DNA of 63,330 nt, filler included, from Dimorphilus gyrociliatus (taxonomy: Eukaryota > Animalia > Annelida), in assembly GCA_904063045.1 (NCBI GenBank). It is 8 parts of 7 records of this genome, joined end to end, with 100 filler letters (N's around TTAATTAATTAA, not from the genome) between each part and the next. Parts side by side here need not be neighbours in the genome. Positions count along the whole stretch, not along the records: positions 30,716 to 41,345 come from CAJFCJ010000221.1; 7 more parts are not named here. One strand, 5' to 3'. Below the pieces are notes generated by a model. It was not told where the DNA came from. It made no database searches and was given only the letters and a program-made list of their open reading frames with translations. A program made the translations under genes and the position numbers. This document shows, in pieces, positions 2,701 to 63,326 of this stretch (positions are counted from its first letter, which is position 1; every line of letters begins with the position of its first letter).

Positions 2701-2707
2701 ATGTATT

Positions 2708-4129: not shown

Positions 4130-4233
4130 TTTAAGAATTAACTTAGAATATGATAAAAACAGTTCTTTATAGTTTAAGAATTCACTTAGAATATGATAAA
4201 AACAGTTCTTTATAGTTTAAGAATTCGCTTAGA
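4130..4233. repeat. 43-bp tandem repeat, about 2.4 copies
   Basis: TTTAAGAATT(A/C)ACTTAGAATATGATAAAAACAGTTCTTTATAG repeated at 4130, 4173 and partially at 4216. Confidence 0.85.
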
Positions 4234-5539: not shown

Positions 5540-6283
5540 NNNNNNNNNNNNNNNNNNNNNNNNNNNNNNNNNNNNNNNNNNNNNNNNNNNNNNNNNNNNN
5601 NNNNNNNNNNNNNNNNNNNNNNNNNNNNNNNNNNNNNNNNNNNNNNNNNNNNNNNNNNNNNNNNNNNNNNNNNNNNNNNNNNNNNNNNNNNNNNNNNNNN
5701 NNNNNNNNNNNNNNNNNNNNNNNNNNNNNNNNNNNNNNNNNNNNNNNNNNNNNNNNNNNNNNNNNNNNNNNNNNNNNNNNNNNNNNNNNNNNNNNNNNNN
5801 NNNNNNNNNNNNNNNNNNNNNNNNNNNNNNNNNNNNNNNNNNNNNNNNNNNNNNNNNNNNNNNNNNNNNNNNNNNNNNNNNNNNNNNNNNNNNNNNNNNN
5901 NNNNNNNNNNNNNNNNNNNNNNNNNNNNNNNNNNNNNNNNNNNNNNNNNNNNNNNNNNNNNNNNNNNNNNNNNNNNNNNNNNNNNNNNNNNNNNNNNNNN
6001 NNNNNNNNNNNNNNNNNNNNNNNNNNNNNNNNNNNNNNNNNNNNNNNNNNNNNNNNNNNNNNNNNNNNNNNNNNNNNNNNNNNNNNNNNNNNNNNNNNNN
6101 NNNNNNNNNNNNNNNNNNNNNNNNNNNNNNNNNNNNNNNNNNNNNNNNNNNNNNNNNNNNNNNNNNNNNNNNNNNNNNNNNNNNNNNNNNNNNNNNNNNN
6201 NNNNNNNNNNNNNNNNNNNNNNNNNNNNNNNNNNNNNNNNNNNNNNNNNNNNNNNNNNNNNNNNNNNNNNNNNNNNNNNNNNN
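5540..6283. other. Assembly gap (744 N)
   Basis: Run of N with no linker sequence. Confidence 1.
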
Positions 6284-6863
6284 AATGTTATTTTTTAAGA
6301 TTATAATCAAAAATATTTTTAAAAGTGTAAAAAAAACACTAATTAATGGATAATATCTTAACACTTTTATATAAAAACAAAATAACTGTTTATTTAATGT
6401 GACTTAACATTACTCCAATTTTAAGAAAGTCGAAATGTTAAATTCAAAAAATAGAAACTATTATAGATATTCCATTCTCTTTTGTACGGATGATTTTTAT
6501 ATAGACTATATTAAAAGTATCTAAACGTCAAAAGGCTTTTCCTTAAGAGCTTAGAATGTATATCGAAGAAGTTGATAATTTCACATCCCATAACACAGAA
6601 ATCAATAAATTACAAGAAAAACAAGCTGTAAAGTTTTTGATATAATATTGAGATTTTATTTCGATAAACTAAACCTAATATCAGTTTTATCGATAAAACT
6701 CAGTTTCTAAAACGCAAGTAAATAATTATTTATTCTGAGGGAACTAAAATATGGATGAAAATAGTTGAAATTATAATAAACACAACCACTTTTAGTAATG
6801 AATCTAAATTTAGTATGTTTAATTCAGATGGAAATATTAATATAAAAAAGATGAAAGGTTATA

Positions 6864-6943
6864 CGTTAATCTCTTAAAATATACAAAATATATTTAATTT
6901 AAAATTAGGAGTGATTTTAGTTTATGTTATGAAAATTTTATAT
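6864..6943. repeat. 80-bp direct repeat flanking MULE copy 2 (partner at 8646-8725; mirrored at 8893-8972 and 10690-10769)
   Basis: CGTTAATCTCTTAAAATATAC...GAAAATTTTATAT is identical on both sides of the element. Confidence 0.9.
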
Positions 6944-8646
6944 CGGTGTGTGACAACTCGTCCTGGGACGAGTTGTCGCACAACTGATCCCACTGAAAAA
7001 TGCGACAACTCGTCTCAAAAGTAAGAAATAAAAACGAAAAATATAAAATAAAACGAATTTATTTGACTTTAAATGTCATGAGCTTGTCAATCAGTTTAAA
7101 AAAAGCCTCAATACTTAAATTTGAACAATTTTCACATAAAATTTTTAGAGAATATTCTTTTTTGTAATCAACCTCTGTTATAGCCAAATGGTTCCCGTTT
7201 TTGAATTGCGTCAAGTTGAAATACATTCTTTGTTCTTCCTCGTTAAAACATTTATAAAAATAGCTAGATTTGGATGAGCTCTGTTAAAAGAGCTGTTTAG
7301 TTCCCGGTGCCAGCTTTCAAGTGTGTTTGTTGTTCTTGGGACGGAATTGATTACACGACTATGACAACTCCAGAAACTAGTGTCGTATAATGGTTGGGGT
7401 CTTTCTTTACTTCCAATAAAAGTTCTACGAAAATAAATTAAAAATCTTTCATCTTTTCATCATCCTGGTTCATGAGAATATCATGTGAGATTTTTTCGAA
7501 TTCATGTAAAACTTCTGATTCTTTTATAAATGCTAAGTGGAAGCATTTCCTAATCAATTTTCGTTTCCAAGTTTTATCTTTGTAAATTATAGAAAGGCCA
7601 AGAGACTGTATTCTCCTCCAAATCATTTGTCCGAAATGGAAATTGCATCCATACACTTTCGTAGATGTAAAAGATATTCTAACAGAGTTAATCAATCCCT
7701 TTCAAAGTCAATTATAATAGCAGAAGGCTTGGCATTTGTTAAGTTTTTTACTTTTTTGAATAAATTTAGATAACTCAATTCAGTTTTTGAAACCATTATC
7801 GCATGTAAACAAGGCCAAAACTTCCCAAGATACTTTCCTTGAATTGTAAGTAATTGTTCGAAATGGCCAGGAACACTTTCCATCTATAATCCAAATTTCA
7901 GACATTTTTAGTACATCTAATTGGAAATCGGAGGCGAAAATGACAAAGCGACTTATATCCTCCATTCCTGAATCACAACGAAAAAATAATTCTCCACGAT
8001 TATTGTTCCAAAGGCATTCAGGAATTTCGGGAATAGATGGAACAAAGTTGGGAATTCTAGTTAATCTCTCCCTTTGAACAATTCTATTTAAAGATCGTTC
8101 TTTCGGGAGATTTTGCATGGTGTCATCAGTGGCATTATGTAATTCCTTGATGACTACATTCATAGTTCTATCTGAAGAAGTTCTCGCCATTTCTTTTAAC
8201 TTAGACTTTAACCTCATGGCGTTTAATTCTCCGTCTACAATTGGTTGATGGTTATGAAGGTTATTATCTTCAATATTCCCATTTTTATTTATCCGTACAG
8301 TAGTATTGCAGTGACGAATTCTGCATCGCCATATCGAATATTCTTCTTTGCTACTCTTTAGTGTAAACAGGTAATTTTGAAAAACTAAAATTTTCCCACT
8401 TCTTTGACCATTAATAAATTCATATTGAGTCATATAAGGGTAATAAACTGAATTTATGAAAAATTTTTAATAATAAAAATGTCAAAATATTTTCAAGAAA
8501 TATAATATATATAATCAATCATTTTTAAAGAAAGTTAATTTAGGTTAGGTTTCATTTATTCAAAATCTTACTTTTGAGACGAGTTGTCGCATTTTTCAGT
8601 GGATCAGTGTGCGACAACTCGTCCCAGGACGAGTTGTCGCAGGGCC
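6944..8646 (-). mobile_element. MULE transposon, copy 2 (several 1-bp indels and an 8-bp deletion)
   Basis: TIRs at 6944-7026 and ~8567-8646. Fragmented transposase ORFs at 7780-8433, 7692-7883 and 7438-7695. Confidence 0.9.
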
Positions 8647-8971
8647 GTTAATCTCTTAAAATATACAAAATATATTTAATTTAAAATTAGGAGTGATTTT
8701 AGTTTATGTTATGAAAATTTTATATTTATTGTTGTAAAAATAGATGCAGTAAAGTATTGAAATATTCATCTTTTCTTTATTTAGCTTCTAAACGGATTGA
8801 TTGTACTTGTTTCCGTACAAATAACGATTATATCTATATAAAGAAAAGATAGAATATTTCAATACTTTACTGCATCTATTTTACAACAATAAATATAAAA
8901 TTTTCATAACATAAACTAAAATCACTCCTAATTTTAAATTAAATATATTTTGTATATTTTAAGAGATTAAC

Positions 8972-10689
8972 GGCCCTGCGACAACTCGTCCTGGGACGAG
9001 TTGTCGCACAACTGATCCCACTGAAAAATGCGACAACTCGTCTCAAAAGTAAGATTTTGAATAAATGAAACCTAACCTAAATTAACTTTCTTTAAAAAAT
9101 GATTGATTATATATATTATATTTCTTGAAAATATTTTGACATTTTTATTATTAAAAATTTTTCATAAATTCAGTTTATTACCCCTTATATGACTCAATAT
9201 GAATTTATTAATGGTCAAAGAAGTGGGAAAATTTTAGTTTTTCAAAATTACCTGTTTACACTAAAGAGTAGCAAAGAAGAATATTCGATATGGCGATGCA
9301 GAATTCGTCACTGCAATACTACTGTACGGATAAATAAAAATGGGAATATTGAAGATAATAACCTTCATAACCATCAACCAATTGTAGACGGAGAATTAAA
9401 CGCCATGAGGTTAAAGTCTAAGTTAAAAGAAATGGCGAGAACTTCTTCAGATAGAACTATGAATGTAGTCATCAAGGAATTACATAATGCCACTGATGAC
9501 ACCATGCAAAATCTCCCGAAAGAACGATCTTTAAATAGAATTGTTCAAAGGGAGAGATTAACTAGAATTCCCAACTTTGTTCCATCTATTCCCGAAATTC
9601 CTGAATGCCTTTGGAACAATAATCGTGGAGAATTATTTTTTCGTTGTGATTCAGGAATGGAGGATATAAGTCGCTTTGTCATTTTCGCCTCCGATTTCCA
9701 ATTAGATGTACTAAAAATGTCTGAAATTTGGATTATAGATGGAACTTTTAAAAGTGTTCCTGGCCATTTCGAACAATTACTTACAATTCAAGGAAAGTAT
9801 CTTGGGAAGTTTTGGCCTTGTTTACATGCGATAATGGTTTCAAAAACTGAATTGAGTTATCTAAATTTATTCAAAAAAGTAAAAAACTTAACAAATGCCA
9901 AGCCTTCTGCTATTATAATTGACTTTGAAAGGGGATTGATTAACTCTGTTAGAATATCTTTTACATCTACGAAAGTGTATGGATGCAATTTCCATTTCGG
10001 ACAAATGATTTGGAGGAGAATACAGTCTCTTGGCCTTTCTATAATTTACAAAGATAAAACTTGGAAACGAAAATTGATTAGGAAATGCTTCCACTTAGCA
10101 TTTATAAAAGAATCAGAAGTTTTACATGAATTCGAAAAAATCTCACATGATATTCTCATGAACCAGGATGATGAAAAGATGAAAGAGTTTTTAATTTATT
10201 TTCGTAGAACTTTTATTGGAAGTAAAGAAAGACCCCAACCATTATACGACACTAGTTTCTGGAGTTGTCATAGTCGTGTAATCAATTCCGTCCCAAGAAC
10301 AACAAACACACTTGAAAGCTGGCACCGGGAATTAAACAGCTCTTTTAACAGAGCTCATCCAAATCTAGCTATTTTTATAAATGTTTTAACGAGGGAAGAA
10401 CAAAGAATGTATTTCAACTTGACGCAATTCAAAAACGGGAACCATTTGGCTATAACAGAGGTTGATTACAAAAAAGAATATTCTCTAAAAATTTTATGTG
10501 AAAATTGTTCAAATTTAAGTATTGAGGCTTTTTTTAAACTGATTGACAAGCTCATGACATTAAAATCAAATAAATTCGTTTTATTTTATATTTTTCGTTT
10601 TTTATTTCTTACTTTTGAGACGAGTTGTCGCATTTTTCAGTGGGATCAGTTGTGCGACAACTCGTCCCAGGACGAGTTGTCACACACCG
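8972..10689 (+). mobile_element. MULE transposon, copy 3 (full length)
   Basis: TIRs of ~83 bp at 8972-9054 and 10607-10689 enclose the transposase ORF. Confidence 0.92.
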
Positions 10690-10706
10690 ATATAAAATTT
10701 TCATAA
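9189..10706 (+). CDS. MULE transposase (FLYWCH-like Zn finger + DDE)
   Basis: Motifs WRCRIRHC...HNH, WIIDGTFK (D), IIIDFE (D), GCNFH (CxxH) and TTNTLESWH (E). The ORF reads through the right TIR. Confidence 0.92.
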   Translation: MTQYEFINGQRSGKILVFQNYLFTLKSSKEEYSIWRCRIRHCNTTVRINKNGNIEDNNLHNHQPIVDGELNAMRLKSKLKEMARTSSDRTMNVVIKELHNATDDTMQNLPKERSLNRIVQRERLTRIPNFVPSIPEIPECLWNNNRGELFFRCDSGMEDISRFVIFASDFQLDVLKMSEIWIIDGTFKSVPGHFEQLLTIQGKYLGKFWPCLHAIMVSKTELSYLNLFKKVKNLTNAKPSAIIIDFERGLINSVRISFTSTKVYGCNFHFGQMIWRRIQSLGLSIIYKDKTWKRKLIRKCFHLAFIKESEVLHEFEKISHDILMNQDDEKMKEFLIYFRRTFIGSKERPQPLYDTSFWSCHSRVINSVPRTTNTLESWHRELNSSFNRAHPNLAIFINVLTREEQRMYFNLTQFKNGNHLAITEVDYKKEYSLKILCENCSNLSIEAFFKLIDKLMTLKSNKFVLFYIFRFLFLTFETSCRIFQWDQLCDNSSQDELSHTDIKFS

Positions 10707-17952: not shown

Positions 17953-19596
17953 CAGTATCGGTGGTAAGTCACTGTTACACCTCAAAAAAATAATATTTTC
18001 TTGATTTTTTCTCTTTCCGCGCCTAAAGAATGAAAATGAAGGATATTATTATATTTAGTAATATTCTTCTTATCATTATAGAGAGAAAATATATGTTTTT
18101 CATTTCAAATCTCTGAATTATTGATATTTTAATGTGGTAGGCCTATTTTCAATGGGAGCATAAGTACTTGTTACAATCACAAAAATTACTCTAAAAGAAT
18201 ATTAAAAGTATTTTTTTGTTCTTATTTTGACTGTTATTTACAGGATATTATATTTTTTAATGCCTTAATATTTTGTGTGTATACCCTTAGCTTCTACAAG
18301 TGCCCTAGGCCTTCTTTCCATTGTCTCATATAAGAATTGAATTTCCAATTCTGAAATTTTATAAATTTCCTCTCTGAACATCTCCCACAGCTCATCCTTG
18401 TTTCTTGGCTTACATGCCATTAAATGTTTTTTGCATATGCCCCATATTTGCTATATTATGTTCAGGTCTGGGCTGTTTGCTGGCCATGGATCCAGTGTTT
18501 CTACTCCCTTTCTCTCGAGGTACGCTTTTGTTCTGGCTGCTGTATGACAGCTAGCCCCATCCTGCTGGAAAATTTCCCCTCTCCTATAATTTGGGACAAC
18601 ATGACTGCTCAAAATTTTGACATAATCTGAAGCTGTCATGTGATTAGACACTAAAGCTAGGCCCCTATCTCCATTGAACTTAATGTAGCCAAACACCATT
18701 ATATTCCCTCCCCCAAATTTTACTGTTTTTGTGGTATATTTGGGGTCATTCCGTTTACCTGGTGGCCTCCTAACAAACTCCCTTCTCCTAGGATGCAGCT
18801 CAACCTTTGATTCATCAGAAAAAATTACTTTTTTCCAATTTTCAATCCCCCAGTTTTCTCTCTCTCTACAGAACTCTTTCCTACTTATTATCTGCCACTT
18901 AGATAAAGCAGGTTTTTTGGCTGCAATTCTCCCATTTAAGTTATTTTTTCGTAGTACCTGCTTCACTGTTGTTAGAGAAAGAGATATAGGTATACCAGAA
19001 TTATATAATATCTGATGGCCCATCCACTTGGGGTTTGATTTAGATGCCCTGGTAATTTGCCTTTCCATCTTTGGTATCACTTTTTTTGGTCTACCACTTC
19101 TTTACTTATCTTTTATTGTTTTTAGCTCTTTAAATTTATTTTTTATATTTTGTACAGTAGTTGGACTACATTTAAAAAGCTTTGCCACTTTTCGAATGGA
19201 CATTTCTGGTCTTTGAAGACAATTTAAGATAGAAATTCTTGTTGCTTCAGATAGCTTCACCATTTTTATTTTAAATTTGTCAACTGTTAGATTACACATG
19301 CCCAAACACATAAATGACCTTAAAATCTGGTTAAAAGCGACACTACTCAATGATCAGGGTAAATTTTTTGAACATAACTGATGCTTGTGCTTTTCCATAA
19401 ATAGGCCTATCACATTAAAGTGATCATATTTCTGAGATTTTAAATTAAAAACATATATTTTTACTTTGTATAATGATAAGAAGAATATTATTAAATATAA
19501 TAATATCCTTCATTTTCATTCTTTGGGCACGGAAAGAGAAAAAATCAAGAAAATATTATTTTTTTGAGGTGTAACAGTGACTTACCGCCACTATTG
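17953..19596 (-). mobile_element. Tc1-family transposon with ~220-bp imperfect TIRs and TA target duplication
   Basis: TA|CAGTATCGGTGGTAAGTCACTGTTACACCTC... and ...GAGGTGTAACAGTGACTTACCGCCACTATTG|TA. Confidence 0.93.
18265..19263 (-). pseudogene. Tc1 transposase (DD35E spacing) with two nonsense codons
   Basis: Single frame: HTH (SIRKVAKLFKCSPTTV), *RSGRP, VIFSDESK, FQQDGA, WPANSPDLNII*QIW, KGIHTKY. Stops at 19102-19104 and 18451-18453; the second replaces the catalytic Glu. Confidence 0.92.
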
Positions 19597-24962: not shown

Positions 24963-27900
24963 CAAGATGAAGATTTAACAGACTCTACGGAAATAGGAAA
25001 TACACCAGATGACTATATTAAACAATTTCAAAGAGAAAACAAGTTTTTAGCATCCGAAGGATTAGTTGATTTCTATTTAGAAGATTTCAATGATGAAGAT
25101 GAAATGTCGCTGTGTGAGGGAGAAGTTGATGTTAGATTTTCTATCTAAATATTCATTTTCTAGGAAATCTCCTGTTAGGTTAATTGTTTATAATTTTTTT
25201 ACAGGAGGTTCAAGAATGTAGTGACATTGAAGTTGCTTATGTAAAAGAATCCGATGATGACTATTGTCCTGAAGAGAAATTATGCGAAATACAGCCTGAA
25301 GACGAACCCTGTCCCAAAAAGGTGTTATGTGTCGAGACTCCAAAAGTCGAGCCTTGTCCAGATGAGCTGTTATACAAAGCACGAGATAACTATGATCCAG
25401 AAGAGAAGTTATACAAAGTCCAAGCTAGATATGAGCCTTTACCAGTAGGTATGTTAAGGGACACACAATCTTAAGTTGAAGAGTTAAATAATGCTCATGA
25501 TGACTATTATCCAGAACAAACATTAAGCCAATCACAATCTGAAGATGAACCTTGTCCAGAATTCCGTTTATGCAACTCACAAATTGAGTGTAATAGAGAT
25601 AAAAAAAGGGAAGATTCCATAATTTATAGATCAGATATATCGGCTGATTGTGTGTCGAGTGCTGAAGATGACTCACATGATATATCCTTTGAAATTAAGG
25701 TTCTTTTTTCCTTTATAATTGTTATGCAATTGAAAAAACTATTTTCAGATTAATAAAGAGAAAAAGGAGGCAGAAGACAAACTCTTTCAGCTGGTTAAAA
25801 ATTGGACAGATTCCAATGAAAATGATATGAAAACATTTCTCAATGAGCTAGCCAGAGAAGATTGTGATAGACTATTCAAAATAAAAGACATTTCGGGATT
25901 GAATGTTATTCATCATGCTGCAAGGAAAAAATCTAAAACTTTACTAAATATTCTTGAACAGAATGGAGCCAGTAAAATATTTTCTTAATTTTTTCGATGT
26001 CAGACAAAAATTACCCAAAAGTTTTTGAATATTTACCTTTTAAATCCTAAATTATTACACAACCTGTATAGTTGACATTTCATTCTTTGGGAAAATTTTG
26101 TCTGGCAATTGTTTAATTTGTAATAAATCAAATTTTCTTTTTTCTAATATTTCTCTGATTCTTCAAGATTTCTACGAAAGAGATGATAATGACAAGTTAC
26201 CTGTGGCGCATTTTATAAATAATGTTGATTATCCTGTAATAATAACAAAAAAAACAGGGTTATAATCTAATCAATGACTCTTTTAAATAGAACACCAGGG
26301 AAGATGAGATTAATTTGGAAAATTCAGCTGATGATAAATGTAATATTGCAATCATAAAAGTTATTTTCGTAATTAATAAGCCTATATATATTTACAGATA
26401 GGAAATTTTCATTCCTAATGAATTATGGCTGTCTTGAATTTTTTTTAAATGAAAACTATATAGAGCAATTGCAAAGTGAAACTAAAGATAAAGTTTTATT
26501 AAGAGCAGTGAAAAGTAGAAGCAATTATGATACAATTGAAACTTTAATTCTTCTAATGCAATTTATTAAACAAGAAACATTTTTCAAATGGCTTTCTGTA
26601 AGTTTTCTGCTTTTTTTCCCTTCTAGCCAAAGATATCTGTTCATTTGCCAACAATTTCAACAGAATACGAGGGATAAAGGAAGAACGGCATTATTTATTG
26701 CAGTCGATTCGCTTCAGGTGGATGTATCCTATTATTTATTTAATTTAATTAGATTCCAAAAGGCTCACTATATTAGATATATGATTGTAAATGATTTGTA
26801 TTCAACACCTTTCCATAAACATTTCTTTGGATATTCGAGAAAACAAACGGAAAGCGCTCAAAAACTGATTAGAATGTTTGCCAGCCAAAAAGAGATTAAG
26901 GTAAAGTATAACAATTGTTTAGAGATTTCATCCTACTTCAGTGAAAAGTGGCCATCTCGTTAAGGGAACTGTCAATTGCTTTCGGTAGCCACTTTTTTTG
27001 GGTGAATCAGCAAAAATAAAACTCCTTTATCCACTACAACTACTGATTTTGCTATTTACAGTTATTCAATATGAAGAATAAAGATTACATGAGAATTTTC
27101 CATTACAATGTGTTTGACAAATGCTGGTTTGATTTCTTATTTCAGTGTAAATAATTTAATACATTTACATATATATGTAGGTTAAGATTGGGTTGCAAAC
27201 ATTTTATGGTGACCCCATTTTGACCTCACTACCGGATATTTAAAAGTTACTTTAAAATATCTTACTATCTTTCAGATAATCAATTTGATGTTGAAGATAT
27301 TGTGCCATTTGTATCATATTTAGCAATTATAAAAGATGATACAATAATAAATATGTTTTTTGAAAAATTTCAAGATGGTAAGAGAAAAAAATTCAAAAAA
27401 TTTCAAATTCAAATAGAATTTTTGTTTTTTGACTTTTTTTATCATAGGATTCACCAAAATGATTTTAGAATGCAGAAAAGAATATTTAAAAGAATGTATT
27501 AAAGAATGTAGAGAGAGGAAAATAGATAAATGTGCAATTATCTATAATTTATTACATTTTGCAATTGAAAAAGGAAATTCAACAATAATTGATTATTTAA
27601 TAAATAACGAGTAAGTAAAGACAAATCTTTGTCTTATTTCTCCTCTTTCTCTCTCTCTCTCTCTTTCAAATAATTGAGTATGATTTTATAATAGAAATAG
27701 GACTTTTCAAAAATTAATTGATATGAATTTTCATATTGAAAACATTGCACTACATAAAAGCTGCTCCAAAGCAACTAAAGATATTTATAGAAATAAACCT
27801 ACTAGTGTCATTTATTATTGCATTAAACATAATGAAGATAGCATTTTGGCTAAATTACTACCATGGTACATAGAAAGGTTGAAAAAATTTCCAGAAGAAG

Positions 27901-30615
27901 ATATAATATTTCAAGCTATGTCTAACTGTTCAATAAAAATTGTTAAGGTTCTAGCACATTTTCTTAATTTTGGACATTAAATTATCAGACAATATTTAAA
28001 CTTTTAAAACATTTACACAGCTTCTTTTCACAGAAAAATCAAAAATTATGGAAAACTTTTCACAAGTTATTGATTTTACAGATGAAGAAAAAAATACTCC
28101 TGCACACAAAGCAGCTCAAAGGAAAAATCCTCTCTTCATGAAAGTAAGATTAAACATAAATAATTGATTATTTGTCCACATTGACAACATCTTTACTTTG
28201 AGATTAATTTCTATAAATTGGAAATAGGTTTAAAAAAAACAAAATAAAACAGAATTTTTTTCATTTGTCTGTAAAGTAGGTCACAACTTTTTGTTGGTAA
28301 AATGACAAAGGAAAATTTTTCATTACACGACAGCTCCTATTGAATCATAATGCAGTGTTTTTGGCAAAGAATGCAAAAGGAGAGACTCCAATGTTACTAT
28401 CGGTTCAGAATAATAATGTGAGGTAGATAAATGAAAAAGAATAGAACAATAGAGATTGAAAATAGATAAGAATGTGTTTACTTTTAGAATCTTTGAATTG
28501 CTATTAGAAAAATTGGAAAGTAAATCTATATCAAAATCTCCATATTTATTGGAATCTATTAATGAGGCAATTAAATACGAGAGTATTGAAGTTTTAGATT
28601 ATCTTCTTCAAATTTCTGATAAAGAGACAATGGAATATCAAAATAAAATTCAAAGTGTAAGCATATAGAGAGATTATTATTTCTTGTATGAAGAATTGTT
28701 GTCTTTACAGATAGGATGGGGTACAAATGCCGTGTTTAGAGCAATTGATAATGGACATAGAAACATGTTACAAACTCTACTCAACTATAAAATTCATCCT
28801 TATGGTATGATAAGCGAAACTGAACAAGTAAATGTACTAGATTTTGCGATAGATAATGGAATGAAGTAAGAGAAATTTAGATATTTCAAATTCGGAAGAA
28901 ATGATATATTTCCGGTTTTGTTTTCTCCTTTTTCTTTAGGGCGGAAGTAGAAATTTTACTAAAATCCGATAAATGGTCGAATTTATTAAGACATTGCTAC
29001 GAAATTAAGAATTATAACTGCTTTCGTAGACAGCAATACATTGATAATCCATTCAAAAAGTTAATTAGAGAAATGCCAGGTGATGAAATAAATCCTATAT
29101 TCTACCAATTCAAAATGAGAAATATCTCTATTTTCAGATATGGCATTAATTGTTTTGAATAAATGTATCATTACGCCTACTGAAATTAAAAGCAAAATAA
29201 AACAAGAAAATGATAATACACCCATCACCATGGAAACTATAACTAAAGATTTTGATTTTAAAATTGAAGAGAAAGAGATGATAAAAACTAAATATAAATT
29301 ACAAGAAACGGTTGTATATAAGGATTTTAAAGAGAATGACGAATTTAATGAAACAATAAAACAAATGGAAGTTAATTATAGTTTGAAAAATGTAAAAATA
29401 ACTGATGAGTCATCAGTTGACAAACCCGTTAGCAAACCAGTCTATTATGATACTTGTCAATGTAAAGACGATCGACAACACGTGTTGTATAACTTTGAAT
29501 TTGTTGCCGATTCATTTCATAGTAAAAAACTAATGAAAAATACAACAAGATTGGAGCATCCTTTACAATTAATGGTAAAGAGAGAGAGAGAGAGAGGTTG
29601 AATTTAAATAAATTCATTTTTTCAAGAGTTCTATTTATAGGTTGAAAATGAAAGAGGAGATCTGATAAGGCATGTAATTACTCAAAAATATTTAAATCAT
29701 TTATGGAATCTGGTTTTTCGAGATTTTCTAATTGGTCTTATTTTCTATTTTGCATATGTTGTATTGTTTACAACTTTATTTTTAACATCAAAAATTTTAA
29801 TTTCCAAGTAAGAAAACAAAAAAATAAATCAAATTCGAAAATAATTGACTTTGTTCCTAAAGGAATGTTACAGAAAATGATGATAAATCTTCTAAATGCA
29901 AAAGGACAAATACATTTTTTATATTTATAATCCTTTTATACATTTATATAGTATTTTGCATTATTTCAGAGGTTAGCTTCATCTACAACTAACAACAACA
30001 GCAATAAAAGTATTTTGATGTTTTTTTTTCAGATTGTTCATCTCTTTTTCCTTAAATGGAAGTATATTACTATAAAAAAGCCACTGGATTGGTTTACTCT
30101 TATTTCTCCTTTTATTGTTTTTATTCACTTTGAAAATCAATGTTTAAATAATTCAGTAAATATCTTCTTTTCTCTATAAAAATTTTTTTTCCAGAGTTTT
30201 GTAAAATCAATTTCTTATTTAGATGAAAATATGGCAATGGGAACTTGGATCAATTTCTCTTCTCTGTTTATGGTTAAATCTTATTCTTGAATTAAGACAA
30301 GTTCCATTTTTTGGTTTATACATCTCTATGGTTATAACTGTTTTCAAGACATTTGTTCAATTTTGCCTTGTATTTCTATTATTTATTGTTGCTTTTGGTC
30401 TTAGTTTTTATAGTCTATTTAGAGATCAAGTAAGAAATAATTGTTGTTATTTTATGTTCATTTTCATTTTTAACTTTTGTCATAGGAATACTTTGCCTCC
30501 TTTGGAGAATCTCTATTGAAAACAGCTGTAATGATGATAGGTGAAATGGATTATGTAGACATGTTTTTTCAAAGTGAAACACCTCTGAATTTTCCAGTTG
30601 CTGCGCACTGCGTTT
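24963..30615 (+). CDS. TRPA-like ankyrin-repeat cation channel, multi-exon, 3' end truncated; some disablements
   Basis: Ankyrin motifs (GLNVIHHAA, GRTALFIAV, NTPAHKAA, GETPMLLSV, GTNAVFRAIDNGH), then HPLQLMV..RHVITQKYL, S4-S5 WQWELGSISLLCLWLNLILELRQVPFFGLYISM...AFGLSFY and pore LLKTAVMMIGEMDY. Inclusion of the exons before 25750 is tentative. Confidence 0.85.
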
Positions 30616-30715: not shown

Positions 30716-33120
30716 CTTTTGGATTAACAATGCCCTCCTCATTTTAGTTTGTAATGAATTATTTGTGCTAAAGGATGTAAAGCATTTGTGCCTAAACTAC
30801 TTGATGACATAATAATATTTACCAAGTCGCTGGACCAACTTGGGAAGCATTGGAGACCATTCTTCAACAGATTCAAAAGTACAATTTTAAGATTAAACTA
30901 AGTAATGTTGTTTTTGAAAGAACAAGTTCAATTCTTGGACACATTGATCAGAAAAGGGATTGAAACAGATAAGTCCAAGACAGATAAATTATATAATTTA
31001 CAGCCACCAGTGTTGCAAATTCACTACTAAGCTTTGTTGCATTTTGTGGCTATTACAAAAATTTATACAAGATTTGCAAGAGTAGCTAAACCTCTGTATA
31101 TTTAATGAAACTACATGGGAAAAAGATAAATTGCAATGACTGAGGAAGCCAAGCAATCATTTTTCAAGTTGAGAATGCAGTAGTTAACCCTCCTGTATTA
31201 CAACTACCTGATTTTGCTAAAGATTTTCACTTAACAACAGATGCATCGAATGTAGCTGTAGGAGGAGTTCTTGAACAAGTTTATGTAGATGAGAATGGGA
31301 AGAAAACAATGAAAACCCATTGCCTACGCTTCAAAACAATTCAACAATAATCAAATGAAATATGCAGCCTATCAAAAGGAAGCATTTGGGTTTACTGGGT
31401 TGTAAAGAAATTTTTACATTACCTTCAAGACAAGCCATTCTTTTTATATACTGACCATCAGAGTCTAGTACAAACATTTAAGCAAAACAAATTGAATGTC
31501 AGCACAGCAAAATGGGTCATGGCTTTAATGGATTTAAAATTTACAATTAACTATGTGACAGGACGAAAAAATAGAGCAGATGCATTAACAAGATTAGAAG
31601 AATATACACCCCAAGGAAAGTAACATTTGAAGAGCTAATTCATGGAAAGATCAAAAAGGAGAATTCTCCCTCTATTTCAGTTAAAATGGAACAGTATGAA
31701 CATACACCAGAGTTAACTTTTGTAGCTACCAGTGATAACAGTGAAGAGAAAATTGATTTGTCTTCTGTTGACTTACAGTCAGAGCAAGAAAAAGATGTGA
31801 ATTTAAAATCAATTAAAGAATATTTAACATTGGATGGTCAGCTACCTATTCCTTATTTTGGAACTTTTACACCTTTCATAATGGAGATGTTTGTTCACAA
31901 GGAAATGATCTGGATTATCCTTGAAGAAAGAAACATTCTGGTTTTACCTGACCATTTGATGCTAACTCTGCTCCCTAAATTCCATAAAAATAAAATTCAC
32001 AATCACCATGGACCCAGAATGACATTACAAATAATTACAAAGACCTTTTGGCACCCAAAATTAAAGATTATGATTGAGAATTCAATAAAGGATTGCACTT
32101 TGTGTGAACAAATGAATGGTAGGAGTAGAGTATACCCTTTGGTAGAAACCTTTCACCCTGCATCACCAATGGAGTTGGTAGCCATGGATATAATGGGACC
32201 CTTACCCATGGTTAAGTCATACAGATTCATACTTGTGATAGTGGATCATTTCAGTAGATACACAGTTTTATATGCACTCAAACAGCAAACCAGTAAAGAA
32301 ATTGCAAACCTTCTTTTCAACAGATTTTTTCCCATTTTTGGAATTCCAAAACAAATGTTGACAGATCAAGGAAGAAACTTTGTTGGTAAAGCTTTATGAA
32401 GGTATTAGGTATTGAGAAAATCCAAACAACAGCTTATAGAAGCCAGAGCAATGGACTAGTTGAACGAAGAAATAGAGAAGTGAGGAAGGAAATCAATAAA
32501 TTAGTGGTGGAAGAAAATCAGCATAACTGGGTTGCAAACCTACCCTTGATTCAAGCATTTTTGAATCAATCACCTGTAGGAAGTACAAGACTACCACCCC
32601 AGGAACTTCTTTTTGGCACCAGCACAAGAACACTGATTGATGTAACAATGCATACTACCTCTCCTGAAACAAATGTACTATTTGTATTCAATCACCAGCA
32701 GCAATTAGTACAGTTAAGAGCTACAGCCTTCTGTAAATCCATCATGGCAAAAGAACAATATAGGGAAAGAAAGAATAGAAATCTCAATCTTCCAAAATAT
32801 TTTGAGGTTGATGATGAAGTATTCTTAAGAAATGATGCTGCAAGAATTGCAATAACAAAATCCTTCTTTAAAATGGTTAGGCCCATACGAATAACAAAAG
32901 TCAATCATCAAAATGGATATATGAAATACAAATGGATGATAATACATGCAAGTTGGTACATGGTAGCAGATTAAGACTAGCCAATGAATCTAATAAGTTG
33001 GAAACAGGGAAAGAAGCAACAACAATCTTTCACCTTGTGGAGAAGGAAATAACACACCTCCAATATCTTTCTCAGGTAGAAGGAAGAAATGACTTCCAAT
33101 TCCGTTTGAAGAATCAAAAA
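30716..33120 (+). pseudogene. Degraded pol: RT - RNase H - integrase
   Basis: FGL.N and YLDD (30798-30809); TTDASNVAVGGVLEQ, YASK, QKEA and YTDHQSL; HHG...CxxC, MDIMGPLP, DHFSRY, TDQGRNF, SNGLVERRN; KWLGPY and HGSRL in the C-terminal domain. Many frameshifts. Confidence 0.92.
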
Positions 33121-33450
33121 GGCCAAGAAGTCATTGCCTTGTGACACAGGAGCATTGAGATCCTTTATTACTGAAAAAGAAATCAGTTAATGGATGTTAC
33201 AATTATGGATAAAGAAAACAATTGGCTTACCAATTATAACTTCAGCTGATGGGAAAGCTTTAAAGCAAAAGGAAGCGTAAAGCTGAATATCCAATTTGCT
33301 GGAGAAAGTATGGAACAAGAATTTATAGTTATGGAAAATCTAGACATAGCAATAATACTTGGTTGTGATTTCCTACAACTGTGGAGCAAACTCAATTTTG
33401 AAGCTAAACAGTGTTCTCTCAAATTTGATAGAAGGAAAGGGAACCTGGCT
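33121..33450 (+). pseudogene. Retropepsin (aspartic protease) domain downstream of integrase
   Basis: QEVIAL/DTGALRSFIT (DTGA at 33143-33154), SADGKAL../GSVKLNIQFAGESMEQEFIVMENLDIAIILGCDFL. Small frameshifts occur, but the C-terminal half is in frame with the env ORF. Confidence 0.88.
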
Positions 33451-36400
33451 GAAAGAATAAGGCAACCTCAACTAAACAAAGTCACTATAGCCATGATGGG
33501 ACAGCATGACTCTTCATCAGAAAGCTCAGATAGTGATGACTCAGAGATGGAAGTTACTAATTCTGATACTGGTTATGACACAAGCAATACTTTCAAAACA
33601 GACAGTAATTACAGTCTCAATAAACCTTCAAGCTCATCTGAAAGTGATGACACAGAAACAAATAATGAACTGGATCAAAATACAGATTCAGAGGCAAACA
33701 TTATCTCTGATAGAGAAGATGAAATATCTAGTTCAGACGATGAGTCAATAATTATTGAAAGCGAAATTATTGATATAACCCATTCGGATAATGAGTCAAT
33801 AATTATTGAAGGTGAAATTATTGACATAACCCATTCGGATAATGAGTCCCTCATAGTGGTAGATTCATCCCAAGATGAGAAAGAAAATACAAGTGACACA
33901 GACAATGAGTCAGTCATATTTTTAGATGAGACTAAAATCATCTCTGAACAATTAGATTCCCAACAAGAAGTGGAACCACAATATATAGAGTTAGAAGATG
34001 GAATAACTATCAGAGTGGAACAACAACACAAAATTTTCAACCATTCAACTATAGCCAACACAGGAAGAGCTAACATGAAACAGATGTTGTGGCTTCCACT
34101 AGTGATGACTGTAATGGTGATCTGTGGCTGCATCCACTCAATAACAGTCCCAAAACCATCCTACCAAGGTGCCCATGTTACAAGTGCAAACATTACCTTA
34201 ACATTTAAACCACCATTATACTTTTGTTCTAACCAACTACCAAGCCAGGCATTTGATCTAGCAGATGAGCCAACTTGTAATATAGAATCACAAGAAACCA
34301 AGACAATTACAGCTGATATCTATGAATTGAACTTGGAAGAAATTGAAACAAGAGCAGTAAAATGTCAAGTGTATCTAAGAACTAATTTTTACACTTACTA
34401 TTTCTTTGGAGCAAAGAAGAGGAGGATTGTTAACTCAGTTATCAAAGTAACTCATGATCAATGCAGACAGATGATAAAAGACAAACGATCTTTTCAAGGA
34501 AAACCTTTAATGGTGAAAAGAAACACTTGGATCCACCAAGATCAGTTTCCTGCTGCCTACACATGGCCAACAACGACCAAGGTGCTGGAATACACCACAA
34601 TTATCCAGTTTGGCAAAGCATATTGGCAACCTCCTAATATGAAAATTACAACTAATCTGGACTACCTGGAAGATTGTTTACCAGGGCAGTCCTATTGTGA
34701 AACAGAAGAGGCAATTATTGTCTTTAGGAACCTCAAGAATAATTACACACTTGGGCAACAATCACCATGGATAAAAATTAGCAACAGAATTAGTTGTATC
34801 AAATTTGCTGGTCACTATTCTTGTCCAGGGTATTCTATTCTGGACATCCCTTATCAAGATAAGTTCATTGATGGAATTGGTGGTCCTGGAACAAAAGTAC
34901 TAGTACCACTGGAGGAACAGAGTTTAATACAGGAAACAAGCAAGGAACACCTATACAATTTGCTACAATATCAGAAGATTGGCAAAAATGAAGAAAAACG
35001 ACTATTAAACTATCCCAATAAAGTTAAAGAACAAATTATACTATACAAGCGAAACAACCCCTTACCAAGTCTTAACCAATGGTACAGAGAAACAAACACA
35101 AAGTATAAACTAATGAGAAATAAAGGCACACTCAAGGAAGTTGTGATATATCATCTACAACAACCCATTAGTCCATCTTACTGGGAGCTGGATAACTATT
35201 ATATCCAAGAAATGCTGCAAGCAGTCAATTGGACAAGGGCAACAAGACAATCTGTCACGATTTCAAAATATGTATACAGTGAGAAAAGAATCAAAAAGAA
35301 GGTATTACCAACATTGGGCATATGGTATAAAGGACCACCAGCCAGAGAATTTAAGATTACCTATGAAGGAATTTATTTTACTCTACACATGAGAATGGCT
35401 AAAAAGCAGATGAAGAAGGAAGCAAAACTGAAACATAAGATAAGTAAAAACCCATACCACAAATTCCCATTGGAAATGAGAGAAGCTGCCCAAACATCTA
35501 CCTTACTACATGGTATTGATTCAAATTTTAAGAATTTAAAAAAGTTTACCCAACAGCTGTCAAGTCTTCTCTGCAATCAATTTGTTCAAAGAAGCAGAAT
35601 GATGGCATTACTAGCAAATTTGGATCCTCAATTGACCACAGTGTTAACAAATGAGTTGGGAATGCACAGTAGTCAGATGGGAGAATTAGCTATAATTAAA
35701 CAATGTTCACCAATAGCCTCAACAGAAGTAGTTTGTGACTTAAGCATGATAAAAAAGAATAACAAATGTTCTCAATTTTTACTTGTCACCATGAACAACC
35801 TGCTTTTCCAAGTAGAACCAGTTACTCATGTTTTACAGCAAGTCAATCCTGAAGAGATTACCTATAATGAGTGTAAGTCTAACAAGTTATTCTACAAAAC
35901 AACTCACAACCCATTAAATCCTATAAGAAACCAACCAATGAAAGACAAAACGTATGTGTATTATTCAGAAAGAGGATGCAGATTTCACACTGTGTCTGCA
36001 AAATCCATGCAGTTACATATCCACAATCACCTTTCTGAACCAAAAATTGAAATTGCCAGATTAGCTGATCTACTCCACCATGGGGTAAAGAAGGATATTG
36101 CATACCAGCACTCAAAAATTAAGCAAGTTATCAGTTCACTGGAACAGAAGCAGGCAAGGTATGATAACATGGTCACTGTTGCAGAGAAAAATGGCATTGT
36201 ACCCAATTTATCTGGAATTAAAAAGTTTTTCCATAGTTGGTACTATAAACCTGGGAAAACACTTTATGTTATCATACGAAATATTTGTTTGAGTATTGTA
36301 GTGTCAATGGTATGTATCATCATTTTCAACTATATTATTGGAAGAAGAAAACAAAGAGAAGAAATTGCTACCCCAAGTGAGAGCACAGATAACTCTCCTG

Positions 36401-46812: not shown

Positions 46813-48615
46813 TGTTGCAACAAAAAGTGTCCGGCCTTAAATAGCGTTTATTTATAAAAATAAAGTGATTTGTAAACTTTTTTATTTTTTTTCAATTATA
46901 AATTTACTAAAAAGAGTAAGAGCTTCGTGACAAAAAGTGTCCAGGTAATTTAATAGGGGTCTCTTTTAATAAATTAATAGGGAAAATGGATAAATGTCAA
47001 TGGCTGACAAAAAGTGTCCGGGGTATTTTTTTAGAGATTTTACCAACATTATAAAGTAAATTTAATAGATATTATGATTTTAATTAAAAAAATAGTTTTT
47101 CTGAATTTTTAGATAAAAATTTACTTAGAAAGTATCCCATGTCTACAAATTTATTAATTGAGAACGATGAAGAAAAAAATAATATAATTATTTATCTATC
47201 TAATAAAACATATCCTATGAACTTTGACGATTCCCAAAAGAGAGTGTTACGTAGGAAGTGTAAAAACCTAGTGTTAAGAAATGGACTATTGAAGATGGTT
47301 GATGATAGGATAGAGAAAGATATAATTCTAATATCAGAAATAAATAAAAGAAAAGAAATAATAATGGAAAAGCATAATGTTGATCATGCCCGGGGAAGAG
47401 TTGTGTTTAATATAGTAAGACAAAGATATGTGGGGATTACCATAAATGATGTTAATAGTCTTTTAGAAAGCTGTGAAAATTGTTTAAGGGAGACGCCTCC
47501 AGCTTTTGCTGAATATATTACACCTATAATACCATCATATCCAAGGGAAAGGTTAATAGTTGATACTGTTGATCTCAGTGTATATTCCCAACATAACAAT
47601 GGATTGAAATACGTTTTCACAATGATTGATAGTTTTACTAAATTTGGATGGGGTTACACGGCTAATAATAAGAACTTAGAGATCTTCTCTGCTATTCTAG
47701 AACAGCACTTTTATAAAGAAGGAACGTAGGAAATTTTTCATAGTGATAATGGAGGTGAATTCAGAAACAATAGAGTAGAGAGTATTTTAACTAGATTTAA
47801 TGTAACTTCTACGCATGGCAGACCATATCATCCCCAATCACAAGGGCAAGTTGAGCGTTTTAATCGTACAATTAAATCGAGAATAAGAAAATCTTTTGGC
47901 TTTAACCAATTTGATTGGCATAATCATATTGATAGGATTGTATATTATTATAATAATACAGCTCATGGAAGCACAGGAATCAAACCATTTCTGTTATTTA
48001 AAGGATTCGATAACGAGCTGTTGAATAATATGAATACAACAACTTTCTCTGATGAAGCAAGATTAAGTTTATTAAACTATGTAGAAACATATCGCAGAGA
48101 GTTTTCCATTAGATCATCTCAGCAAATAAGAATACGGGATAGAGTATTACTGGTTAAGCCATATAGTCCAACTATAAGAAGACGGGCTCTTGAATCACTT
48201 TATTTTAATAATATTTATGTAGTTGAAGAAATAAATGGTGAGAGAATCGTTATTAAAAGGCAAAACTCTGAAGAGACAAAACAAACTTCAATACGCTGTG
48301 TGAAGAAAATTATCTAAAAAATTCAGAAAAACTATATTTTTAATTAAAATCATAATATCTATTAAATTTACTTTATAATGTTGGTAAAATCTCTAAAAAA
48401 ATACCCCGGACACTTTTTGTCAGCCATTGACATTTATCCATTTTCCCTATTAATTTATTAAAAGAGACCCCTATTAAATTACCTGGACACTTTTTGTCAC
48501 GAAGCTCTTACTCTTTTTAGTAAATTTATAATTGAAAAAAAAATAAAAAAGTTTACAAATCACTTTATTTTTATAAATAAACGCTATTTAAGGCCGGACA
48601 CTTTTTGTTGCAACA
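46813..48615 (+). mobile_element. Ginger-like DNA transposon: Gypsy-type integrase between ~300-bp TIRs
   Basis: TGTTGCAACAAAAAGTGTCCGG... and ...CCGGACACTTTTTGTTGCAACA. The TIR motif AAAAAGTGTCC occurs x3. No RT, RNase H or gag. Confidence 0.9.
47139..48317 (+). pseudogene. Integrase-type transposase (HHCC + DDE), intact except for one TAG at 47727-47729
   Basis: HNVDH...CENC, ERLIVD, IDSFTKF, EGT*EIFHSDNGGEF, HGRPYHPQSQGQVERFNRT. ORFs 47139-47729 and 48021-48317 share one frame. Confidence 0.9.
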
Positions 48616-52348: not shown

Positions 52349-53510
52349 GGTTAATGTGGATTATAGTGGGTTTTTGAGATTATAGTGGGCTTTTGAAAAT
52401 TTTTAAGGACCCTCCCTTTAATAAATGTCATTTTCCAAAAATTTAAATTATATTATACCTGAAGCAGAAATATTTTCGTTTTTCACTATAAAAAATACAA
52501 ATTTACGTTCTGATTACTTTGAAACAATATTTGATAAAAAAGACCTACTTAATTTTATGGCACGCTGGCGTTTAATAAATAATCGACAAAAGTGCGATAG
52601 TTGTAGCATTTATATGTTTTTACATAAAGAAATAAAAATTATTGATGGATATAGATTTGTCTGTCGAATATGTAAGAAGAAACGCTCAGTAAGATATGGT
52701 AGCTTTTTTTTTAAATCACGTTTAAATTTAAAAACAATTCTAAAAATAATCCAAAAACTTCTATATGCAGTACAAAAAGAAGTTATAGCACATGACTCAG
52801 GTTTAGATCGAGCATCTGTAACTAAATGGGAAAAAATTATTTTAGAAGCCATAGCTTATAATATACAACAGAATACAAGCCAAATAGGCGGAATCAATGA
52901 AAATGGAGAACCTACTATAGTTGAAATGGATGAAAGCCTTTTCTTTAAAAGAAAATATAATAGAGGCAGATTGTTAGAACAGAGGTGGTATATAGGAGGA
53001 ATAGAACGGGGAACAAGCAACATATTTGTAATTGAGGTTCCTGATAGAAGAACACAAACGATAAAAAATATTATTTTAGAAAATATTTTACCAGGAACAA
53101 AGATTATAACAGATCAATGGAAAGCCTATAGATCTGCATTGGGACAGCTAGAAGATGAGCTACTACATGATACTATTAACCATGATAGATTCTTTGTAAG
53201 TCCAGATGATCCGGAAATACACACCCAAAACATTGAATGTTTATGGAGTGTTACGAAAAGGCATATAAGAAAACATACAAATTGTAAAGATTTGCAATTC
53301 TTTTATCTCTTACAATGTATTTGGTTTAAAAAGTTTGATAAATTTAAAAGATTGAATGAAATGTTTATTTTATTATCAAGTAATGCTTATGAAATCGAAT
53401 TTGACGGACTCAATTAAAATTCAATTTTTTTAATTTTTTTAATTTTTTAATTTTTAAAAATTTTCAAAAACCCACTATAATCTCAAAAACCCACTATAAT
53501 CCACATAACC
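52349..53510 (+). mobile_element. Merlin/ISXO2-like transposon, apparently complete
   Basis: TIRs GGTTAATGTGGATTATAGTGGG... and ...CCCACTATAATCCACATAACC, each with a duplicated ATTATAGTGGG unit. The right end abuts the linker, so the TSD cannot be tested. Confidence 0.93.
52425..53417 (+). CDS. Intact ISXO2-like (Merlin) transposase, 330 aa
   Basis: CDSC...CRIC Zn ribbon, VEMDES (D), IITDQW (D), HTQNIECLW (E). Confidence 0.93.
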   Translation: MSFSKNLNYIIPEAEIFSFFTIKNTNLRSDYFETIFDKKDLLNFMARWRLINNRQKCDSCSIYMFLHKEIKIIDGYRFVCRICKKKRSVRYGSFFFKSRLNLKTILKIIQKLLYAVQKEVIAHDSGLDRASVTKWEKIILEAIAYNIQQNTSQIGGINENGEPTIVEMDESLFFKRKYNRGRLLEQRWYIGGIERGTSNIFVIEVPDRRTQTIKNIILENILPGTKIITDQWKAYRSALGQLEDELLHDTINHDRFFVSPDDPEIHTQNIECLWSVTKRHIRKHTNCKDLQFFYLLQCIWFKKFDKFKRLNEMFILLSSNAYEIEFDGLN

Positions 53511-57402: not shown

Positions 57403-58386
57403 AAAATGTTACCAGTTTTACATTTTCACCAGTGAATGAAAGTTTATTGGATGATCCTGATCTATTAAAAGAAATAGACGCTGGAGTTAGTTAATGTATA
57501 TTTTTTGTTCATATTCATGGGTTTAGTTTATTTTCAATTTTTCAGTTGACATTTGACACAAGAGGAAGAAATAAGGTTATCATAATTGCAATGACAGACA
57601 AAAGGAAAGTAGATACGGCTTGCGATTTGATCAATCTTCGGTCTGTGTTTGGTAGTTTAAATTATGAAATAGAAGAATGGAGAGATATTAATACAGAAAT
57701 GTTGATTGAAAATATTGAAAATTTTAAGAATAGTGAAGAGAATCATTGTGATGAAAGTAATTCAATCAAATCATTAATTGTTATTGTTATGTCACAAGGA
57801 AACAAAAATTCAATTTTGTTAAAAAATAATAGCTATATAACATTTGAAGATTTATTAAATCAATTTGATTTATCGTCCATTTCTCAATTGGAAAATATTC
57901 CAAAAATTTTTATTTTTCAAAACCACAGACAAACAACAGGTTTTTGTTTAGTTTTCTATTTTTAACTTTGAATTATTATATAATTTTTTACATATATCAA
58001 AAATAGGTCAAGTGGACCAAATTTGTGTGTCAAACACTTGTCAGTCATTTACTGAGGGAAGAAATTGCGGATTTTTTATACTCTATTCAACAATTCCAGG
58101 TATATGAATTTATTTTTAACAGGCAGACAGAGATTACTCATTGTGAATATTTTTAAACATAGACACACACTCTTCTCAAATAGTGAAAGGTAGCCTTTTC
58201 ATAAGAGGATTCATAATGGCTATGTGTTATTTACAAAACAGCAAGAAGAGATATATAAATAACATTTCAAAATATATAAATTATTGGATGAATGAAATAT
58301 CAACAGATAATATGGATTTCATTCAACAAGTACAAACTATTGACAAGAATTATTTCTTCTTTCCACAAATGAAGAAAAACCAATAA
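57403..58386 (+). CDS. Caspase-fold (C14) protein lacking the catalytic His and Cys
   Basis: Exons ~57546-57939, ~58006-58100 and ~58163-58386 give DLINLRSVFGSLNYEI, VIVMSQG, PKIFIFQNHR, FFILYSTIP, GSLFI and YFFFP. Upstream exons are uncertain. Confidence 0.8.
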
Positions 58387-61560: not shown

Positions 61561-63326
61561 TACCAATAGGTTGCTGTATCAATAGGATGCAGACCAAATT
61601 AGTATAAAATTTTTTTTTTAATTATTTTAACCCCCTTTTATGGTAATACCCTTATGTATCAATAGGATGCAGACCAAATTACCATGAACTTTTTTTTAAT
61701 ATATAGGAGATTTTAGTATAAATTTTTTTTCAAAATCTCATTGTATCAATAGGATGCAGTAAAATTAATAGGAAATTTTTTATACTTATTTTAATATAAA
61801 AAAACATTTTTTAAATTTTTCAATAAAAATTTAATTATTATTAGATTGGTAATATCTCTTTATACGGTTTTTATGTACTATTTTGGTTGAACTACTTAGA
61901 TGATCCTTTATTATAATTGTATTATTATTAATGTTCTCAATAATAAAAATTTCATCATAATATAAATTCGATAAAGGTCTTCTTCTACTTTGAATGTTCA
62001 TATCAAAATCCTTTGCGAGTATTACGTTGTTTCCAATATCAAAATCACACCTAGCAATTCTCAAGTTATATTCATTGACATATCGATTAGCATAATTTAT
62101 AATTTGATGCCTTATATCATTTAATTCGGCGATTTTCTGTAGATTGAGGTTATTAGGACTATTGAAAGCACCTCTATAAATAAGAATGGTGTGTGCTTTG
62201 TAGCGCTGTGCTGTGAATTATTATACTCATATACAAGGCAATCCAGCTTATCAATCCATTTGTTACTTCCTAATAATAGTGATTTTTTAATCTTTTCTTT
62301 AATTGTTCTGTTGAATCTCTCTATCTGCCCTTGTGATTGTGGGTGTCTTGGTCTTCCATGAATCATTTCTATTCCCCAAACATTGCAAATTCCAGTCACC
62401 TCCTGATTAACAAACTCTCTGCCATTATCTGTATGAATAATATCAAATTTCCCTTCTGAATATAAGAACTTTGTTAGTATACGCGAGAAAGTTATGGCAG
62501 TTTTGTCCTTTGTGGCAAAAGAAAATGCAAATTTACTGAAGGTTTCAATTATATTAAATATATATCGATATCCATCGTTTTCATTCCTATATTGTGATAG
62601 GTCAACAAGATCTATCATTATTCGCTGCCTAAAATACTCTGGTACAATTGCTGTTATAGAGCTCTCTGGCTGGATTCTAGTGCTTCTTTGACATTTATCA
62701 CAACTTCGCACGAACTGAGCAATTTCATTGCTTTTAATCCCTAAATATGATCTACTTATATGATTTCTCATATCAACTATTCCAGAATGGCCAGTTCCAT
62801 GGGAAAGACGCAAAACAACCCTTTTTCTATAAAAATCATCAGATAAAATTATCTCTTTTTTTCATTATTTTTTTGATAGAATATTTTTCCATCAATATAG
62901 ACAAAATTTTGTACTTTTTTGAGAAATGAATTTTTTTTAGACCTATCGTTAAACTCAGGAATGCGTTTGGTTAAAAGATATGAAATGACGAGGTCTCTTT
63001 CTGCAATATTAGATATTCCAACCTGTTTACTCATTAAGGGACTTTTAATAATTAAATTTTTATTGAAAAAAGTTTAAAAAATGTTTTTTTATATTAAAAT
63101 AAGTATAAAAAATTTCCTATTAATTTTACTGCATCCTATTGATACAATGAGATTTTGAAAAAAAATTTATACTAAAATCTCCTATATATTAAAAAAAGTT
63201 CATGGTAATTTGGTCTGCATCCTATTGATACATAAGGGTATTACCATAAAAGGGGGTTAAAATAATTAAAAAAAAATTTATACTAATTTGGTCTGCATCC
63301 TATTGATACAGCAACCTATTGGTACA
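61561..63326 (-). mobile_element. Ginger-like DNA transposon with ~280-bp TIRs
   Basis: (TG)TACCAATAGGTTGCTGTATC... and ...GATACAGCAACCTATTGGTACA. The TIR motif GTATCAATAGGATGCAG occurs x3. Confidence 0.9.
61831..63034 (-). pseudogene. Integrase-type transposase with two frameshifts
   Basis: ORFs 62849-63034, 62121-62813 and 61831-62064: HGTGH...CDKC, IMIDLVD, IETFSKF, HTDNGREF and HGRPRHPQSQGQIERFNRT. Confidence 0.88.

Follow-up and report, generated by a model that had tools for sequence, protein, structure and literature searches.

A retropepsin-type protease domain between integrase and a class III fusogen-like envelope in a Ty3/gypsy element of Dimorphilus gyrociliatus

The window analyzed here, 63,330 nucleotides from the annelid Dimorphilus gyrociliatus (assembly GCA_904063045.1), is a series of contigs chained with 100-base pads, and its part at 30716-41345 (CAJFCJ010000221.1) carries on the plus strand a long terminal repeat (LTR) retroelement that lacks its 5' part, the contig beginning within the reverse transcriptase (RT). 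The order RT-RNase H-integrase, as in Ty3/gypsy elements (Metaviridae), is present, as are the TG...CA LTR ends and the polypurine tract at the 3' end. A class III fusogen-like protein with signal-like and transmembrane segments follows pol, as in HSV/gB-type errantiviruses. Between integrase and envelope (Env) lies a domain proposed in an earlier note to be a retropepsin, and the coordinates and motifs given in that note were all found in their places (Table 1).

Judged by its sequence, this segment is a full-length, gypsy-like retropepsin (clan AA) of predicted activity. Translated with X at the frame breaks, it scored 32.9 bits against a profile of gypsy-like proteases (8 domains from 21 loci), covering positions 14 to 111 of 119; none of 1,000 shuffles equaled this score, which lies within the leave-one-out range of the 8 true gypsy-like proteases (7.7 to 54.3 bits). 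The scores on our own profiles were 32.9 and 29.2 bits, each reached by 0 of 1,000 shuffles. On a second profile of 56 domains from 67 loci, mostly caulimovirid-like by layout, the segment matched positions 4 to 107 of 114, was equaled by 0 of 500 shuffles and ranked above all other six-frame segments of the window, with a score lower than on the gypsy-like profile (9.2 versus 32.9 bits). Among Pfam families, RVP_2 matched the unbroken pieces in the C-terminal half only (E = 0.037; 14.3 bits against a cutoff of 20.3), and the N-terminal pieces, scanned only as broken pieces, gave no Pfam match. Atlas look-alikes of the C-terminal half included RVP_2 and RVP clusters at 0.93 to 0.94, besides unnamed clusters and one unrelated family. 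The D-T/S-G catalytic motif (33143-33151) falls in the catalytic column of the alignment, and the catalytic Asp is separated from the Gly motif by 71 residues, a spacing for which 49 of the 56 caulimovirid-like proteases show values of 70 to 71, and the five of eight gypsy-like proteases where it could be measured show 57 to 71. With a full-domain profile match and with D-T-G-A, flap and G-x-D-F-L at the usual spacing, the retropepsin behind integrase is real.

Other retropepsins share the D-T-G active site, the flap and the hydrophobic-hydrophobic-Gly motif; the domain described here is unlike them in its position after integrase. In none of the 14 gypsy-like open reading frames (ORFs) with a score on the combined profile did a protease match lie downstream of an RT or RNase H motif. 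One viral contig with a gypsy-like layout (L002, 1-8383) carries a protease near the end of its first ORF (709 amino acids), with RT in a separate ORF.

Table 1. Features of the retroelement in the window
Feature	Position	Strand	Evidence or remarks
RT, C-terminal part	30716..31150	+	Many frameshifts; contig begins here; FGLT and LDDIIIF in translation, which we take to be RT motifs
RNase H	31150..31600	+	Pfam RT_RNaseH_2 E = 6.6e-11, RT_RNaseH E = 1.6e-9
Integrase: zinc-binding domain, core, C-terminal tail (presumably GPY/F type)	31947..32980	+	Integrase_H2C2 E = 1.8e-9, rve E = 4.4e-10, rve_3 E = 0.0054; KWLGPY, HGSRLRL
Spacer of ~40 codons, integrase tail to protease	32981..33099	+	Open frame
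Retropepsin-type aspartic protease domain	33100..33435	+	Own profiles and shuffles; RVP_2 weak; Atlas look-alikes; 4 frame changes inside, in the window
Catalytic motif D-T-G-A	33143..33154	+	Sequence; aligns with catalytic column of 8/8 gypsy-like proteases
Flap-like S-A-D-G	33242..33253	+	Sequence; putative role, from position
I-L-G-C-D-F-L	33355..33375	+	71 residues past catalytic Asp
Acidic Ser/Thr-rich linker, 31% D+E, 27% S+T, with 51-nt tandem repeat	33500..34070	+	
In-frame Met (34075), then hydrophobic signal-like segment (34084-34150)	34075..34150	+	Hydropathy only
Class III fusion-protein-like ectodomain (gB/rhabdovirus G type), cysteine-rich	34141..36258	+	Foldseek; start placed by eye
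Transmembrane segment, then cytoplasmic tail up to stop 36493-36495	36259..36345	+	Hydropathy
Polypurine tract	36512..36525	+	Sequence
3' LTR, 635 bp, ends TGTAC...GTACA	36527..37161	+	

In the window as assembled, the region between integrase and Env is broken. HGSRLRL (32959-32979) and QEVIAL (33124-33141) share a frame that opens with ATG at 32932, ends at the stop at 33142-33144 and extends from stop to stop over 32881-33144, and KWLGPY (32871-32888) lies in a different frame. SADG is in the frame of DTGA, but past a stop at 33188. ILGCDFL was said to be already in the env frame, and the motif (33355-33375) indeed falls inside the 1,081-codon frame at 33250-36495 that holds the envelope. 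Five runs from two studies contain this stretch, and the breaks were examined in contigs from four of them, three of one study that may include the source of the window (X1, X2 and X4) and one of another study with another organism label (X5). Over 4.8 kb (30733-35500), X2 differs from the window by 41 gap letters and 8 substitutions, X5 shows no gaps over 34216-35690, and gap letters cease after ~34000. Because gap letters far exceed substitutions and end there, the frame breaks are likely to be assembly errors near a contig end; natural decay as their source was rejected on the same grounds.

X1, X2 and X4 each cover 32862-34100 in one 1,247-letter piece with 10 gap letters, and for X1 eight of the nine break places are among the rows listed. 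With X placed at the nine breaks, integrase tail, protease, acidic linker and envelope form a frame of 1,210 codons without a stop; of the 512 ways to combine phases across these breaks, only 2 leave the frame open. In contig coordinates, RNase H, integrase core, integrase tail and env are in one phase, and the frame is retained in all four runs of the two studies. No stop separates integrase from protease or protease from Env in the frame so read. The idea of an ancestral single ORF stands as to the stop-free frame from integrase tail to env end and the shared phase, and needs changing in that the frame is not only ancestral, since the breaks look like assembly errors.

Diverged sister contigs also cover the protease. 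Of the 25 substitutions among those listed, two rows adjoining a break being excluded, 15 fall on third codon positions (P = 0.006), and the downstream protease looks constrained in these contigs, as far as codon positions indicate. The main X5 contig keeps the phase but is without 60 nucleotides (20 codons; window 33170-33231) between active site and flap, with no depth across them. This deletion would reduce the Asp-to-Gly spacing to 51, compared with 57 to 73 in 60 of 61 proteases measured. The summed X5 contig depth, which was not taken as copy number, is higher over env (34216-36528) than over pol, which would be consistent with deleted copies in which env and LTR remain.

That the domain is a passenger or an artefact, either a dead or nested fragment or a joint of separate pol and env ORFs in collapsed repeat contigs, strikes us as very improbable. 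Contigs do merge copies, the Pfam cutoffs were unmet on the pieces, one X5 contig carries the deletion, a size-matched published element is labeled GAG-POL (PMC13524379), and a 24-nucleotide direct repeat of 71% identity (33026-33049 and 33415-33438), probably due to chance, flanks the domain. Against this stand a complete domain with every motif and a frame kept in four runs of two studies. Base composition is even over integrase, protease, linker and env (GC 0.32 to 0.38; A 0.35 to 0.41), and the protease is not flanked by repeats of LTR or target-site type; a nested insertion with boundaries of its own, for which no sign was found, was rejected.

The linker holds a 51-nucleotide tandem repeat with a third partial copy (33720-33934), and a diverged X5 contig is without 102 nucleotides here. 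Just before the signal-like segment, the stretch at 33967-34028 is matched by diverged X1, X4 and X5 contigs whose sequence upstream is unlike; it is possibly a conserved motif for cleavage or sorting.

The envelope, as modeled, is a class III (gB/rhabdovirus G-like) fusogen-like protein. Twelve env homologs were found, one of which (P0004) matches the rhabdovirus G fusion domain (Rhabdo_glycop_FD; E = 2e-5). A structure model from 13 sequences had a mean pLDDT (predicted local distance difference test) score of 48.9, with a confident part at about residues 54 to 221; a single-sequence fold was unusable (pLDDT 34). Foldseek searches with the model gave herpesvirus gB as best match in the PDB (E = 9e-10) and gB and rhabdo-like G in BFVD (E = 7e-12 to 2e-11), with low TM-scores of 0.14 to 0.23 by query length. 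Sequence searches of the PDB returned nothing relevant, protein-database searches with the env frame (near and longer lengths) and with integrase (longer lengths) found no relative, and tblastn against plasmids gave no match. The homologs P0002, P0004, P0009, P0010 and P0012 are gene calls starting with Met and a hydrophobic stretch, and related envelopes can therefore stand alone; here, a transcript of env alone would also be possible, with the in-frame Met at 34075 as its start. The whole frame contains no R-x-K/R-R furin site.

The element resembles the Dingle family (Dinophilidae Gypsy-like elements), which has a gB-like env (PMC7854359), and Annelida_Polychaeta_Dgyr_errantivirus_1, which has LTRs of 631/636 bp, an internal part of 8,048 to 8,049 bp, an HSV-type env and 7 copies (PMC13524379, Supplementary file 1), in being a Ty3/gypsy element with a gB-like env downstream of integrase; both papers assign the size-matched family to Ty3/gypsy. 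A natural intact copy has a published place at CAJFCJ010000063.1, about 2300-10347. In runs X1 and X4, one contig links the LTR end at 37161 back to 30761 across 2,249 letters, from which a 5' LTR is inferred and the length between LTRs is estimated at ~8,050 bp; the LTR of 635 bp and this length compare closely with the published values (PMC13524379). Among named gene models of D. gyrociliatus, two match the env, and P0011 also matches the LTR (60%). It is very likely, judging by size and related gene models rather than by sequence comparison, that the element is of the Dingle/Dgyr_errantivirus_1 kind.

That fusion of Pol and Env in one ORF would be without precedent is not supported, since single Gag-Pol-Env ORFs are known (PMC9094657; labels in PMC13524379). 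Among HSV/gB-type errantiviruses, elements from springtail, rotifer and tardigrade are labeled GAG-POL-ENV and one from bee is labeled POL-ENV (PMC13524379, Supplementary file 4), and these four elements share a gypsy pol followed by env. Their POL is given as protease-RT-RNase H-integrase, and no protease between integrase and ENV is described in the material of PMC13524379 available to us. Atlas virus and Cer13-like Belpaoviridae likewise have one stop-free Gag-Pol-Env polyprotein, but belong to the BEL/Pao lineage and carry a class II, phlebovirus-like Gn/Gc envelope, again with no protease after integrase described in the portions of PMC9094657 at hand. The texts, legends and tables consulted from PMC7854359 and PMC13524379 do not mention a protease after integrase, and neither such a protease nor a second one was found in the literature searched, outside of which lie most subscription papers and Repbase reports. 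In Metaviridae, Belpaoviridae and retroviruses, the conserved Pol order is taken to have the protease before RT (PMC12440569). What is new here seems to be the position of the protease, fused Pol-Env being known. The domain map in Extended Data Fig. 3d (PMC7854359) may nevertheless depict the order already.

How such a frame might operate can be outlined from what is generally known about type I membrane proteins. A single Pol-protease-linker-Env precursor would be translated, in which the segment at 34084-34150 would serve as an internal signal and would tether the Pol part to the membrane on its cytosolic side. Host signal peptidase would cut behind the signal, freeing the luminal Env ectodomain. 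The protease would dimerize on tethered precursors and cut itself and integrase from the acidic linker and anchor, and it would also process Gag-Pol. We give about even chances to this scheme as a whole, in which signal peptidase probably frees the ectodomain and the downstream protease probably cuts on the cytosolic side and is the main protease. The earlier note had the protease itself release the glycoprotein by cutting the linker, a proposal that agrees with the protease immediately preceding linker and env in a shared frame and with the missing furin-type site. However, a hydrophobic segment precedes the ectodomain, which would therefore be luminal, beyond the reach of the protease, and would be released by signal peptidase; homologs beginning with Met and a hydrophobic stretch also speak for an env that can stand alone. 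Alphavirus capsid autoprotease exposes a signal by cleavage, and a linker cut could still do so here, merging this route with the scheme of signal peptidase and cytosolic protease. As an explanation of its own, release by the protease appears improbable.

Whether the downstream protease is the main one depends on what precedes RT, a region missing from the window, as had been noted earlier. P0011 is the gene model of a deleted sister copy, matches env and LTR at 60%, and is RT-like from about residue 120. The stretch before its RT weakly matches the C-terminal half of the protease profile (4.7 to 5.8 bits; reached by 3 to 4 of 1,000 shuffles), and the Asp that it has in the catalytic column is not followed by T-G; compared directly with P0011, the downstream protease gave no significant match (118 of 1,000 shuffles). 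A degenerate protease-like remnant, at which this stretch hints although the model may be off-frame there, likely occupies the usual place before RT and would mark a route of duplication and subsequent decay to relocation. In five gypsy loci the catalytic Asp lies 290 to 394 residues ahead of the RT motif. Recent duplication of a protease lying upstream was rejected as the origin of the downstream domain, as the contig with the upstream 2,249 letters does not align to it at 80% likeness.

Several observations weigh against the scheme with the downstream protease as the main one. From LTR to RT motif there are ~735 codons, room for Gag and a normal protease. On the caulimovirid-like profile P0011 was not significant (64 of 500 shuffles), and its start may be off-frame, the model being from a deleted copy. 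The stop check spans integrase tail to env stop, with 30733-32862 outside it, and X1, X2 and X4 come from one study, possibly with the source of the window itself. The deletion in X5 suggests that the downstream protease can be lost. Scans of viral and metagenome contigs for env or integrase loci yielded no second locus with the same order. The size-matched element is labeled GAG-POL, not GAG-POL-ENV, with a chromodomain after integrase (PMC13524379), a label that counts against the scheme unless that copy is also broken in the protease. The published chromodomain was found by HHpred; Pfam and PDB scans of 32932-33141 gave no match of any kind, a chromodomain included. By eye, the spacer at 33020-33125 resembles the first half of the chromodomain consensus, with no Pfam or PDB match.

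Two working proteases would accommodate part of this: a normal one before RT would serve Gag-Pol, and the downstream copy would be an accessory that only frees Pol from linker and membrane anchor and is dispensable. The upstream room, the protease-like signal ahead of RT in P0011 and the loss of 20 codons in frame from the main X5 contig, which would make the spacing 51, all fit this arrangement. Yet P0011 is without D-T/S-G at the expected place, sister contigs retain the downstream copy, apparently under constraint, the contig with the upstream letters speaks against a recent duplicate, and sister families could supply deleted copies in trans. We regard two proteases as a genuine possibility that falls short of being probable.

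That the Pol order can be changed or added to is evident from a multicopy, seemingly intact element in which a protease follows integrase. This raises the question of how one Pol-Env precursor divides between cytosol and membrane, and whether tethering times protease activation. It is conceivable, though on balance doubtful, that in an enveloped Ty3/gypsy lineage the sole active protease was relocated to the far end of Pol, where it lies between integrase and a class III envelope anchored in the membrane, that a dead relic stayed behind before RT, and that Env-driven membrane tethering would switch on protease dimerization and, through it, particle maturation. If so, the relocation would break the protease-before-RT order shared by the families named in PMC12440569. 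Pipelines that assume the order protease-RT-RNase H-integrase would overlook such proteases, above all in assemblies with indel errors.

Elsewhere in the window are DNA transposons (9168-10706, 18451-19101, 52425-53417, 47730-48317 and 62121-62861), comprising a MULE with FLYWCH, a Tc3-like DDE, an IS1595-like DDE and, with inverted repeats close by, two integrase-core genes. An N-terminal fragment of Argonaute (4942-5520) and a caspase-domain exon (57495-57965) were also found, together with a 529-codon ORF on the minus strand (43740-45329) without a Pfam match. Ankyrin and channel-like exons lie at 26373-30615 and look to us like a candidate TRPA gene.

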